From positions 671,234-735,233 of the forward strand of contig JBAZBD010000001.1 of assembly GCA_041671645.1 (NCBI GenBank): a DNA stretch of 64,000 bases, given 5' to 3'. The stretch's first letter is position 1. Each line of letters opens with the position of its first letter. A model generated the notes under the pieces. It made no database searches. It was not told where the DNA came from and saw nothing but the letters and a program-made list of their open reading frames with translations. Position numbers and translations under genes: made by a program. Below, one piece after another: positions 15,143 through 51,264 of the stretch. Origin of the DNA: Patescibacteria group bacterium. Lineage in GTDB: Bacteria; Patescibacteriota; UBA1384; XYA2-FULL-43-10; 1-14-0-10-43-13.

Positions 15143-15430
15143 AATTCTCCTTATGTTTACTCTCCAATTATAGCAGATAAATATCAAAATACAGCACCTA
15201 ATAATTGACAGCTTCTCCTGATTGCTGTATAGTATTAAGGTTTTGGTGCCCAAATTCTACCTGCAAGGAGGTCTGACATGACCTTGATCATGTGAGGGGC
15301 TCCCCCAGTGCGGTCACTGACGACTACTGGGCACACCGGTTGGGGGACCCCGATATTATCCAACTCTACCACGCCCCGGCTTTTGCCGGGGTTAATTCTT
15401 TGTCCGAAACATGGACAAATCATCATTTTT

Positions 15431-15440
15431 TTGTTATAAT
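15431..15440 (+). promoter_or_regulatory. -10-like TATAAT box just upstream of the inferred RNase P RNA 5' end
   Basis: ttgtTATAATtatca; TATAAT at 15435-15440, inferred 5' end of the RNA at about 15446. Confidence 0.3.
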
Positions 15441-15486
15441 TATCAAGCTCAAAGCCAATCAGATAGCAGCCCCTCACCCTTGATGC

Positions 15487-15743
15487 TATAATCGAGATAT
15501 GCATTATCTCTATTTATTGCAAAGTGAGACAGACAAGTCTTTATACATTGGCCAGACATCGGATTTAAAAGTTCGATTATGCGATCATAACTCGGGTAAA
15601 AATCAATCAACAAGATTGAAGAAACCTTGGAAATTGATTTATTACGAAGCATATCTCGATCCAAGCCTGGCAATCAAACGTGAACGGCAATTGAAAAGAT
15701 TCGCCAAATCGTATGCAATGTTGAAGAAAAGAATAGGCTTGTA
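15487..15743 (+). mobile_element. insertion in the RNase P RNA P3 loop that carries a GIY-YIG ORF (homing-endonuclease-like)
   Basis: A perfect 17-bp inverted repeat (the P3 stem) immediately flanks an 81-codon GIY-YIG ORF, and the stop codon abuts the 3' stem arm. No group-I-intron core is evident. Confidence 0.4.
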
Positions 15744-15744
15744 G
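15499..15744 (+). CDS. GIY-YIG nuclease-domain protein (YhbQ/UPF0213-like), paralog 1
   Basis: YLYLLQSETDKSLYIGQTSDLKVRLCDHNSGK ... PWKL matches the GIY-YIG core. Confidence 0.7.
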   Translation: MHYLYLLQSETDKSLYIGQTSDLKVRLCDHNSGKNQSTRLKKPWKLIYYEAYLDPSLAIKRERQLKRFAKSYAMLKKRIGL

Positions 15745-16205
15745 CATCAAGGGTGAGGGGAGGAAAGTCCAGGCACCATAGAGCAGGACGCTCGTTATAA
15801 ATGAGCAGGCAGTAATGTCTGAGAACAGCGCAACAGAAAATAAACCGCCCCTCACCCTTTGTGGACAAAAAATCCGAGATTCGGATTTTGACGCAAGTCA
15901 GTCCATGAAGGGTGAGGGGTAAGGGTGAAATCGTGCTCCGATGTTAAATTCGGAGTCTCGCAATCGTTGGATTGTTGAGAGGGTAAGAGCCCACGCGTTC
16001 GTATGGCGACATACGTCTGTGGCAAGCCTCGTTTGGTGCAAGTGGGGTGGACCGTTTGAATTAATGTCTGCTCGACAGATTCAAAAGGCCCTCACGCTTA
16101 GATAGATTGCTGTCCAAAACAGAACCTGGCTTATGCTTGACTTTGAGCAAAACAAGACTATAATTCTTATATATCACCCTGATTGAAGTAATTTGTGGCC
16201 CATAA

Positions 16206-16262
16206 CGTTCCGAGTAATTGGAACGGGGTAACACCTCAACTTCCGTTGGGGTGTTTTATTTT
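16206..16262 (+). terminator. hairpin plus T-run downstream of RNase P RNA
   Basis: aacacc tcaacttccgttgg ggtgtt ttatttt. Confidence 0.35.
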
Positions 16263-16997: not shown

Positions 16998-17007
16998 TCG
17001 GGGATCG
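16998..17007 (+). repeat. direct repeat copy of the tRNA-Gln 5' end (tcggggatcg)
   Basis: Identical 10-mer at 16998-17007 and 17331-17340 brackets the GIY-YIG ORF. It is followed by two hairpins (gctgtgtc-atac-gacacagc; ccctgtc-gaat-gacaggg) and no matching 3' acceptor strand. Confidence 0.6.
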
Positions 17008-17058
17008 CTGTGTCATACGACACAGCCCTGTCGAATGACAGGGTCTAATTCATTTTTC

Positions 17059-17325
17059 ATGTATTATCTTTATATATTACATTTGAGAAAAGTTAATAAG
17101 CTTTATACTGGTTCAACCCAAGATCTGAAGAATAGGCTTTCTGAGCATCTTGCGAATAAAGTGTTATCGACAAAGAATCGTGATCCCGAAATCATACACT
17201 TTGAGACATACAAACTCAAAAGTGATGCGTTGAGGAGAGAAAAATTCCTTAAAACCACCGAGGGCAAAAGATTGCTTCGACAACAATTAAGAGATATTTT
17301 GATTTCGATAGATTATATTGATTGA
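17059..17325 (+). CDS. GIY-YIG nuclease-domain protein, paralog 2
   Basis: MYYLYILHLRKVNKLYTGSTQDLKNRLSEH; ends 6 nt before tRNA-Gln. Confidence 0.65.
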   Translation: MYYLYILHLRKVNKLYTGSTQDLKNRLSEHLANKVLSTKNRDPEIIHFETYKLKSDALRREKFLKTTEGKRLLRQQLRDILISIDYID

Positions 17326-17330
17326 TATAT

Positions 17331-17404
17331 TCGGGGATCGTCTAATGGCAGGACAGCGGCCTTTGAAGCCGTGAATCATGGTTCGAATCCATGTCCCCGA
17401 GCCA
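17331..17404 (+). tRNA. tRNA-Gln (anticodon UUG)
   Basis: Manual cloverleaf: acceptor TCGGGGA/TCCCCGA, D stem gtct/ggac, anticodon stem gcggc/gccgt, loop cTTTGAa giving anticodon TTG, T arm CATGG-TTCGAAT-CCATG, discriminator G, encoded CCA. Confidence 0.8.
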
Positions 17405-17543
17405 AAATAAAAGCGCCAAGAAATTGGTGTTTTTATTTTGGACATGGATTAGAACGGGAAGGGGTCGGGAAACGGAAGTTTCCCGTGTAGGAAAAAACTA
17501 AAAACCGTGGGTTTTTAGAAGCGAAGGATGAGCGCTCGAGATC

Positions 17544-17559
17544 CCATGTCCCCGAGCCA
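17544..17559 (+). repeat. duplicated tRNA-Gln 3' end (ccatgtccccgagcca), att-like
   Basis: 16-nt exact copy of 17389-17404 lying 155 bp downstream. Each copy is followed by a hairpin plus T-run (17410-17440 and 17562-17600). Confidence 0.6.
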
Positions 17560-17663
17560 AGAAAAACGCTCAACTATAAAGTTGGGCTTTTTTCTTGGTT
17601 AAAAGCAACAAGATTGACAAATATTGACTTCCAGCCTAATATGAGCTCAAACCAAGCACGGCG

Positions 17664-50970: not shown

Positions 50971-51264
50971 TTAAATAATATTTTTATATAAGTCATCCCA
51001 GTCGGGATTTTCTTTTTCTATTAATTCAATCTTCCAATCTCTCTTCCAACGTTTCAATTTCTTTTCTCTCTCGATCGCAGATAACGGATTGTCGTACTCT
51101 TCAAAATGTACCAACTTATCTATAAAATATCTGCTCGTGAAACTCTCTTTGTCATACTTGCCCTTGTGGAAATAAATCCTTCTTTTGAGATTATTCGTAA
51201 CCCCGACGTACAAAACTCCGTCTTTCTTGCTGGCTAATATGTAAGTGTAATACTTCTTTCCCAT
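50971..51264 (-). CDS. GIY-YIG nuclease-domain protein, paralog 3
   Basis: YYTYILASKKDGVLYVGVTNNLKRRIYFHKGK. Confidence 0.65.
   Translation of the reverse strand: MGKKYYTYILASKKDGVLYVGVTNNLKRRIYFHKGKYDKESFTSRYFIDKLVHFEEYDNPLSAIEREKKLKRWKRDWKIELIEKENPDWDDLYKNII

Follow-up and report, generated by a model that had tools for sequence, protein, structure and literature searches.

Introduction

The best-described relatives of the locus reported here are insertions in the ribosomal RNA (rRNA) genes of bacteria from the Candidate Phyla Radiation (CPR, or Patescibacteria). As far as the searched text of Tsurumaki et al. goes (2024, PMC11270868, which cites Brown et al. 2015), GIY-YIG proteins are encoded in non-intron insertions of these genes, their spread by homing was judged unlikely, and the insertions are removed from the transcripts; the same text describes 23S rRNA intervening sequences (IVSs) that are cut by RNase III without ligation. 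Here we describe a GIY-YIG gene within rnpB, the RNase P RNA gene, of a Patescibacteria group bacterium (assembly GCA_041671645.1, contig JBAZBD010000001.1, positions 671,234 to 735,233 of the forward strand). This whole stretch of 64,000 nucleotides (nt) is called the window, and positions given without a locus name refer to it. At the apex of helix P3, its rnpB carries an open reading frame (ORF) for a predicted GIY-YIG nuclease domain between the arms of an inverted repeat. From the comparisons below we consider it probable that this is a mobile, hairpin-bracketed GIY-YIG cassette of ~290 nt, tolerated at helix tips.

The window ORF and the CPR rRNA insertions share protein family and clade, with homologues of the window ORF at 44–61% identity inside 16S and 23S rRNA genes. 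As with the insertions described in the searched part of PMC11270868, the family is not intron-like, sits at stem-loops and is scattered over several sites. The definition of an rRNA insertion applies to the loci L026, L040, L055, L056, L058, L075, L087 and L095 of our set; the window, with rnpB as host, falls outside it, and the family extends further to tRNA leaders, a probable riboswitch and intergenic DNA. Inverted repeats, hairpins and RNase P are not mentioned in the searched text of PMC11270868, so the bracketing repeat, the co-variation of repeat and protein and the ORF-less derivatives appear to be undescribed there. Open-access papers and preprints yielded no report of a protein ORF inside a bacterial rnpB, nor any account of the bracketing repeat, of ORF-less derivatives, or of tRNA and riboswitch contexts. 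We conclude that the window cassette and the CPR rRNA GIY-YIG insertions are one element family, here with a new host gene, and that its architecture had not been set out before. The RNase P RNAs of CPR bacteria are themselves divergent, some of their helices being extended or missing, and are not easily detected; in an earlier survey thresholds were lowered and structures refolded by hand (Lui et al. 2021, PMC8172020).

The locus also resembles 23S rRNA IVSs, in that a structured and essential RNA is interrupted at the tip of a helix by an insertion that has its ends in a long duplex, occurs sporadically and, if cut, would leave a host RNA working in fragments. Some of these IVSs carry an ORF, for example of the S23p family in Leptospira and Coxiella. 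Unlike them, the window has RNase P RNA as host and a GIY-YIG nuclease as ORF product, and its excision is a proposal of ours. With the GIY-YIG homing endonucleases (I-TevI, T4 Seg) the cassette shares the catalytic fold and the position of a selfish gene in or beside conserved RNA genes (T4 SegB lies in the T4 tRNA gene cluster), but it has no DNA-binding domain or intron, occupies many insertion sites and is bracketed by an inverted repeat. Closest by both sequence and fold, with the same beta-beta-alpha-beta-alpha domain, are the UPF0213/YhbQ proteins (PDB 1zg2, 1ywl) and the nuclease domain of Slx1. In contrast to the cassette, those are ordinary chromosomal genes, Slx1 having in addition a RING domain and the partner Slx4, and we know of none inside an RNA gene or between inverted repeats. 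Finally, palindromic elements such as the Rickettsia palindromic elements, REP/RAYT and miniature inverted-repeat transposable elements (MITEs) are hairpin repeats with coding and ORF-less versions that are tolerated inside functional genes. The cassette likewise has coding and ORF-less forms and leaves the host product undisrupted; it differs in that its protein is a GIY-YIG domain and not an HUH or DDE transposase, its copy number per genome appears low, and target-site duplications are not evident.

Extent of the RNase P RNA gene

The covariance-model search proposed in the initial annotation of this stretch was run with the insert present. Rfam RNaseP_bact_a (RF00010, type A) matched 15716–16149 on the forward strand with 121.2 bits (gathering score 100), the sole match in the window, and all 367 model positions were aligned. 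The conserved regions CR-I to CR-V fell downstream of 15757 with high posterior probability, where the annotation had located them, but the 5′ strands of P1 to P3 were crowded into the final 45 nt of the ORF, at the cost of many non-canonical pairs.

The annotation had placed these 5′ strands about 300 nt upstream, and the pairing of the two ends of the gene bears it out (Table 1). The P1 3′ strand, which is the very end of the Rfam match, is 87% complementary over 15 nt to a segment beginning 23 nt upstream of the left repeat arm. A 22-nt frame was moved through the 1200 nt that precede CR-I, and at each position its duplex energy with the P1 3′ strand was calculated. The top of the 1195 positions was the one 23 nt before the left repeat, at −15.2 kcal/mol (background mean −6.3, standard deviation 2.6), whereas the choice of the covariance model for the P1 5′ strand scored −6.8 kcal/mol, i.e., at background level. 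Six other loci of the same arrangement gave rank 1 in four cases and ranks 19–25 in two (with the window, rank 1 in five of seven), and the scan for P2 showed the same behaviour.

Covariation was assessed in an ungapped mini-alignment of 113 columns from ten rnpB genes, composed of the 5′ segment, a tetraloop-capped P3 stem, CR-I, the 3′ strand of P2, CR-V and the 3′ strand of P1. Here, 84.7% of the cells were paired, compared with 39–53% when the partners were slid by 1–3 columns, and none of 500 shuffles matched the observed values on any measure. Two-sided changes were present in all seven P2 pairs (95.7% of the P2 cells paired) and in 14 of the 15 P1 pairs. P1 to P3 form by pairing of the 5′ and 3′ ends with covariation support only when the upstream segment 15447–15486 is included. 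An orthologue without the ORF, L015, from a contig of a Berkelbacteria metagenome-assembled genome, was aligned by the Rfam model with CCCCUCACUCU and GGGUGAGGGG as the P3 strands around a 36-nt loop insertion and with P2 placed just upstream. The minimum-free-energy fold of the 704-nt precursor contained P1, a 19-bp P3 and P12 as proposed, and no terminator-like site was found between 15446 and 16148. The duplex scan, the covariation, L015, the fold and the lack of an internal terminator together confirm a predicted RNase P RNA gene that spans 15447–16148 and is split in the P3 loop, with about 41 nt upstream of the insert as its true 5′ end.

The promoter-like site of rnpB (TGGACA, 17 nt, TATAAT, with TG upstream) matches at 11 of 12 positions and ends 6 nt before P1, which agrees with the TATAAT noted initially at about this distance from the RNA 5′ end. 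Equivalent TTGACA/TATAAT sites precede the 5′ strands in L102, L104 and L005.

The insert and its protein

The P3 arms are a perfect 17-bp inverted repeat (15470–15486 and 15744–15760), extending to 22 nt with one mismatch (95%), so that the insertion at the P3 apex has its ends in a duplex of 17–22 bp. As first described, the arms enclose a single ORF: the 257 nt between them hold 81 codons and no other ORF, and the stop codon TAG (15742–15744) overlaps the 3′ arm by one base. The 12-mer core of the repeat, CCCCTCACCCTT, occurs four times in the 64-kb window (0.21 expected by chance), exclusively in the arms of P3 and P12. Reading the insert by eye reveals an extended −10-like TGcTATAAT 6 nt before the ATG. 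L002, L102 and the flipped copy of L012 described below share the TATAAT at this distance from an ATG, which L005, L001 and L007 lack.

Table 1. Positions of the RNase P RNA elements and of the GIY-YIG cassette in the window
Feature	Position	Strand	Basis
rnpB promoter-like site	15412–15440	+	TGGACA, 17 nt, TG + TATAAT
P1 5′ strand	15447–15461	+	pairs with 16134–16148; duplex scan, covariation
P2 5′ strand	15462–15468	+	pairs with 16108–16114; covariation
P3 5′ arm, left inverted repeat of the cassette	15470–15491	+	perfect to 15486; core CCCCTCACCCTT; same sequence called P3 by Rfam in L015
TGcTATAAT, extended −10-like	15484–15492	+	read from the sequence; putative leaderless-mRNA start for the ORF
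GIY-YIG ORF, 81 codons, UPF0213/YhbQ-like, Slx1-like fold	15499–15744	+	Pfam match
P3 3′ arm, right inverted repeat, holds the stop codon	15739–15760	+	inverted-repeat search, fold
RNase P RNA core, CR-I to CR-V, P4 to P15	15761–16133	+	Rfam alignment; P18 absent
P12 with ORF-less hairpin, same 12-mer core	15848–15919	+	inverted-repeat search, fold, arms of L008
P2 3′ strand	16108–16114	+	covariation
P1 3′ strand, RNase P RNA 3′ end	16134–16148	+	complementarity, duplex scan, covariation

The 81-amino-acid (aa) product matches Pfam GIY-YIG (PF01541, E = 2e-17), with the domain covering residues 1–69, and its nearest solved structures by sequence are the UPF0213 proteins BH0048 and EF2693 (PDB 1zg2 and 1ywl; E = 2.4e-9 and 3.5e-7), in line with the YhbQ-like identity given at the outset. 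Seven residues are invariant in 44 homologues (Y16, R26, H30, E50, R61, E62 and K66), among them Y16, R26, H30 and E62 for the catalytic Tyr, Arg, His and Glu of the superfamily. The proportions of non-synonymous differences (pN, 0.22–0.39) are low while those of synonymous ones (pS, 0.73–1.0) are saturated, which indicates that the ORF is maintained by purifying selection. The AlphaFold2 model (predicted local distance difference test, pLDDT, 93.2) shows strand-strand-helix-strand-helix, the GIY-YIG order. Foldseek matched it to 1zg2, to the Slx1 nuclease domain (TM-score 0.63–0.70), to the I-TevI catalytic domain (0.58) and to the UvrC N-terminal domain, the latter two being more distant structural relatives than UPF0213 and Slx1. 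The protein consists of a single GIY-YIG domain, with no DNA-binding domain in its 81 aa, and its best NCBIfam match, ‘group I intron endonuclease’, is weak (E = 0.0095, below the cut-off of that model). The family comprises 4218 clusters (50% identity) at E ≤ 1e-10, and the contig index searched held no record identical to the window protein. From sequence and structural model we conclude that the ORF is functional and encodes a stand-alone predicted GIY-YIG nuclease domain.

Filled, unfilled and ORF-less P3 sites

Homologues of the ORF come from CPR/Patescibacteria, the named groups being Yonathbacteria, Yanofskybacteria and the Microgenomates group. These names, together with rnpB relatives in metagenome-assembled genomes of Berkelbacteria, place the bacterium in the CPR. 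The P3 site is also filled in L002–L004, L005/L006, L020, L025, L041, L079, L102 and L104, from independent assemblies in ENA, JGI, Logan and NCBI, and the spacing of the 12-mer cores across filled P3 loci is nearly constant (261–275 nt). P0001, 84% identical to the window protein, is encoded in an rnpB P3 on a 518-nt contig, and for L102 the protein identity is likewise 84%.

Scanning one genome per species for the junction GGGTGAGGGGAGGAAAGTCC recovered P3 helices of the same sequence without the ORF. Only 3 nt separate the P3 12-mers in L021 (Campbellbacteria), and 36 and 53 nt in L015 and L008, respectively; these are the ORF-free sites that a comparison of related rnpB loci, suggested in the initial annotation, was expected to look for. 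Occupancy is thus sporadic, with the site filled in the window, L002, L005, L012, L020, L102 and L104 and unfilled or ORF-less in L021, L015 and L008. The same P3 3′ strand is native in unrelated Proteobacteria (Cupriavidus, Ralstonia and Sneathiella), from which we conclude that the C-rich/G-rich P3 is an ordinary pre-existing helix.

In L012, a Berkelbacteria contig, the cassette is flipped relative to rnpB, and its ORF lacks the ATG and has a stop at codon 3, with the remainder intact. This sequence is read most simply as the outcome of recombination between the repeats that inverted the cassette, with later decay. We had also considered L012 as a sign of insertion in either orientation and dropped the idea, the repeat-mediated flip being simpler in view of the lost ATG and the early stop.

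ORF-less hairpins of the same family

The P12 hairpin of the window has 19-nt arms, 89% complementary, that begin with CCCCTCACCCTT and enclose a small extra hairpin and the native tip GACGCAAGTC. In P3 of L008, an ORF-less hairpin has the identical right arm, GTCCATGAAGGGTGAGGGG, and a left arm with two differences. With arms this similar, one hairpin module occupies different helices in different genomes. The P12 helices of L002 and L005 lack the 12-mer, and in L034 an ORF-bearing cassette sits in P12. The combination of a filled helix and an ORF-less hairpin with the same core in one rnpB recurs in L079 (P3 filled, hairpin in the P15 region) and in L023 and L046 (P15 region filled, hairpin in P18).

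The P12 12-mer is thus no coincidence and marks an ORF-less hairpin of the same element family. The initial annotation had taken the shared 12-mer to mean that the element may have used a pre-existing helix; this idea fits the uninterrupted P3 hairpins of the same sequence in L021, L015 and L008, and what had to be corrected is the view of P12, which in our reading itself holds a family member. The ORF-less hairpins could be non-autonomous derivatives or, alternatively, cognate targets of the resident nuclease that are unfilled.

A further arrangement was noted in L044 (1020–1760), where a complete, uninterrupted rnpB has an ORF-less hairpin at its 3′ end (CCCCCACACCAACTT ... AAGTTGGTGTGGGGG, with ~85 nt between the arms) and a GIY-YIG ORF outside the hairpin.

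Hosts, repeats and probable mobility of the cassette family

The alignment of 44 sequences was too divergent for a locus search, and an alignment of 14 sequences was used for the metagenome scan. It found 80 further loci (44–61% identity), which together with L001, L002, L005 and L007 form a set of 84, both flanks being available in 83. Overall, the homologous ORFs from CPR metagenomes are 44–84% identical to the window ORF. A flanking inverted repeat scoring at least 11 was present in 61 of the 83 loci. The repeats are mostly perfect, 12–24 bp long and C-rich in the left arm (CCCCTCACCC, CCCCCACACC, CCCCCCACCAC, CCCAGCACC, CCCCGCAC), and the stop codon lies inside or beside the right arm.

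Hosts are diverse. According to Rfam and BLAST, cassettes interrupt 16S rRNA genes at helix 6 (L055, L058, L095) and at other sites (L056, L075, L087), and 23S rRNA genes in L026, L040 and L024. Within rnpB they also occupy P12 (L034), a hairpin near P8/P9 (L086) and the P15–17 region (L023, L046). Other copies are intergenic, some with a 2-nt TG repeat at the flanks, or lie directly 5′ of tRNAs (L030, L039, L049, L053, L069, L094). The closest homologue with several kb of context, P0002 (74% identity), is outside rnpB.

Two loci display the borders of the element. L001 (74% identity) has a cassette with the same repeat core just before a protein gene, and in L103 a cassette of the L001 type precedes pilM. 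Their identity is ~85% over ~293 nt; the borders, at GGATCCCTCACCC and GGGTGAGGGAGGAGGGGTAT, are sharp, no similarity extends outside, and the two lie at different loci. At their right end, GGGTGAGGGAGGAGGGGTAT (L001 2750–2775, L103 975–1000), both contain a GGAGG Shine-Dalgarno-like sequence just before the start codons of two different genes, and this cassette may drive the neighbour's translation signals or stand in for them.

In L007 (64% identity; 2400–2800) a cassette with the CCCCTCACCCTT repeat splits what is probably a cobalamin riboswitch upstream of a DUF4430 gene. Rfam matched the 5′ half of the riboswitch only, up to the left repeat and below threshold (20.4 bits, E = 0.075), and a B12-box-like AGTCAGAAAACCAGC follows the right repeat. 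Around the L001 and L007 cassettes, Rfam gave no match at the gathering threshold, and we regard the riboswitch context as probable and not as proven, because the match covers the 5′ half and stays below that threshold.

The class of the repeat tracks the similarity of the protein, with a mean identity of 57.2% within and 52.1% between classes (permutation p < 0.0005), and several host types are represented in each class. Since the repeat class follows the protein and the classes span hosts, the repeat is part of the cassette and moves together with the ORF. Terminal inverted repeats carried along by the element are therefore seen in two ways, in the L001/L103 borders and in the link of repeat class to protein.

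In the tRNA-linked loci L039, L049, L069, L030, L094 and L053, and also in L033 and L090 with tRNA fragments, the right repeat ends in GGGG(C), which corresponds to tRNA nucleotides 1–5. Directly left of the left repeat, the same loci have a copy of tRNA nucleotides 1–10 (7–10 nt). Such a copy resembles either a duplicated target or a tRNA 5′ end that has been regenerated, and it hints at how the cassettes insert.

Many close relatives of the ORF are known as proteins alone and are fused to prepilins. P0049, P0052, P0053, P0062, P0063, P0065, P0090 and P0097 (190–514 aa) consist of a GIY-YIG part (residues 1–81), a short linker, the prepilin N-terminal methylation motif GFTLIELL and a pilin body; the GIY-YIG part mostly ends in KKR.G., as in the window ORF. 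The nuclease domain is thus located within the leader peptide that precedes the prepilin peptidase site in these type IV pilin-like proteins. Open-access papers and preprints yielded no prior description of such a fusion.

Alternative explanations

Several observations weigh against a mobile cassette. No clear flanking repeat was found for 22 of the 83 homologous ORFs. A consistent target-site duplication was not found either: rnpB has none, and the 7–10 nt duplicate of the tRNA 5′ end is confined to the tRNA-linked copies. The cassette contains no recognised transposase, its sole protein being the GIY-YIG domain, which on its own is to our knowledge not a known transposase. Within the 64-kb window the repeat does not occur outside rnpB, and there is no sign of recent proliferation. 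All rRNA and RNase P hosts found through the protein are on the same strand as the ORF, although the orientation count is partly built into the method, as for tRNAs only same-strand downstream tRNAs were sought. The P3 insertion is common to several related lineages with saturated synonymous sites, and in the lineage of the window it may be old and vertically inherited.

Part of this would suit a domesticated passenger, that is, an immobile cassette whose nuclease serves the cell in repair, recombination or RNA processing and is kept in stable-RNA genes for its expression, the hairpin merely protecting the fold of the host. The strong purifying selection at saturated synonymous sites, the orientation shared with the host RNA (the single flipped copy having decayed), the sharing of the P3 insertion by related lineages and the confinement of the repeat to rnpB in the window are all compatible with it. 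We nevertheless think it unlikely, because the same cassette with sharp borders stands at unrelated loci in L001 and L103, the host sites are many, with a repeat that tracks the protein, relatives are occupied only sporadically, and ORF-less hairpins from different genomes share their arms while sitting in different helices.

Classical homing would require a self-splicing intron, or a free-standing homing-endonuclease gene, that cuts insert-less P3 alleles of rnpB and spreads by repair. GIY-YIG is a known family of homing endonucleases, the weak NCBIfam match points the same way, and the P3 site is occupied in several lineages with filled and unfilled alleles coexisting. No group I or group II intron model matched even at E ≤ 1, however, and 257 nt that the ORF nearly fills have no room for a ribozyme; an intron of either group was rejected on these grounds. 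The protein is only a catalytic domain (81 aa, compared with 92–97 residues in the solved I-TevI catalytic-domain chains). In place of a single conserved insertion site, the family, including close homologues with the same repeat, is found at unrelated places: upstream regions of protein genes, a probable riboswitch, tRNAs, rRNA and other rnpB helices. The suggestion that the protein might be a homing endonuclease for this site is thus not supported, given the lack of a DNA-binding domain, of an intron match and of a fixed site, and we hold homing to be very improbable.

Least credible of all, to the point of being negligible, is that the RNase P RNA is the contiguous 15716–16149 and the upstream complementarity accidental, for although Rfam aligns that stretch in full above the gathering score without the upstream segment, its P1 to P3 are full of non-canonical pairs, its P1 region pairs at background level, far from the −15.2 kcal/mol of the real partner, covariation in ten genes ties P1 and P2 to the upstream segment, L015 has its P3 called there, and a promoter-like site precedes the upstream segment.

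Proposed mechanism

For the mobile, hairpin-bracketed cassette at the P3 apex that we prefer, tolerance and movement can be outlined as follows. The repeat pairs as a 17–22 bp extension of P3, and the ~41-nt 5′ and 390-nt 3′ segments can therefore still build the type-A core. At the DNA level, the cassette would move, or would have moved, with the aid of its own nuclease, as its distribution suggests. Because the protein is a minimal Slx1-like domain, the nuclease may recognise structure (a hairpin or cruciform) or its own repeat, and not a long sequence. Insertions would survive only where the hairpin renders them harmless. The ORF could be expressed as part of the rnpB transcript, or its own TGnTATAAT could yield a leaderless message.

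As in rRNA IVSs, an enzyme of the RNase III type may cut the long perfect duplex. By this analogy we lean towards excision, which would give an RNase P RNA of two pieces kept in association by P1, P2 and P3; it is favoured because the family preserves a perfect duplex of 12–24 bp, more than helix closure needs, and because the CPR rRNA insertions are reportedly removed. Retention of the insert as a giant P3 loop is a serious contender, if the less probable one. An RNase III signature motif was not found among the ORFs of the 64-kb window, which is uninformative for so short a stretch.

More tentatively, and with distinctly less confidence, we propose that these cassettes are an unrecognised class of CPR mobile elements: a minimal, structure-specific GIY-YIG gene between perfect hairpin repeats, ~290 nt in all, with ORF-less derivatives, lodged in parts of precursors that cells remove anyway. 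Such removable segments would be the helix tips of rRNA and RNase P RNA (removed by a double-strand-specific RNase), tRNA 5′ leaders (RNase P) and, in frame, the leader peptides of prepilins (prepilin peptidase).

Other features of the window

Two more GIY-YIG ORFs were identified. The second, at 17035–17325, encodes 96 aa with 37% identity to the first (Pfam E = 8.8e-13) and ends 5 nt before a tRNA-Gln gene (17331–17404). It has no C-rich inverted repeat; the 5′ 10 nt of the tRNA-Gln, TCGGGGATCG, are duplicated at 16998–17007 and the ORF lies between these direct repeats. The 3′ end of the tRNA (17389–17414) is likewise duplicated at 17544–17569 (88%). The order rnpB, GIY-YIG, tRNA-Gln is the same in L005, and L002 has the tRNA without the ORF. 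The third, at 50971–51264 on the reverse strand, encodes 97 aa (E = 2.7e-17 to the family profile) upstream of a gene like that of threonyl-tRNA synthetase; small separate hairpins stand at its flanks, with no bracketing inverted repeat.

Directly after rnpB, at 16165–16262, follows a conserved structured element of ~75–95 nt, in the order TTGTGGCCC, hairpin, GGGGTAACACC, hairpin, GGGGTGTTTT. It has a promoter-like TTGACT-16-TATAAT of its own (16137–16164, overlapping the P1 3′ strand) and a terminator-like site at 16230–16255, and the same motif follows rnpB in L002, L005 and L015. Rfam returned no convincing family for it (best BSnc120, 24.5 bits against a gathering score of 114). Upstream of rnpB, 15205–15395 may hold a small RNA, with a promoter-like TTGACA-17-TATAGT (15205–15233), ~140 G+C-rich nt and a terminator-like hairpin (15373–15392); this region has no convincing ORF and no Rfam match at E ≤ 1.

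Biological implications

RNase P RNA is an almost universal, single-copy and essential ribozyme. In the bacterium studied here it would be made with a 257-nt appendage on P3 or as two pieces of RNA. The P3 insertion also explains why CPR RNase P RNAs are given a wrong 5′ end by covariance models or escape them. The GIY-YIG insertions of CPR rRNA genes are linked by it to one architecture, a hairpin-bracketed cassette that is also found in rnpB, in tRNA leaders and in a probable riboswitch. This gives a hypothesis for how such an element is tolerated and for how a nuclease that consists only of a GIY-YIG domain might find its targets. If the cassettes are indeed a class of mobile elements lodged in removable parts of precursors, the RNase P of this bacterium would work as a two-piece ribozyme.

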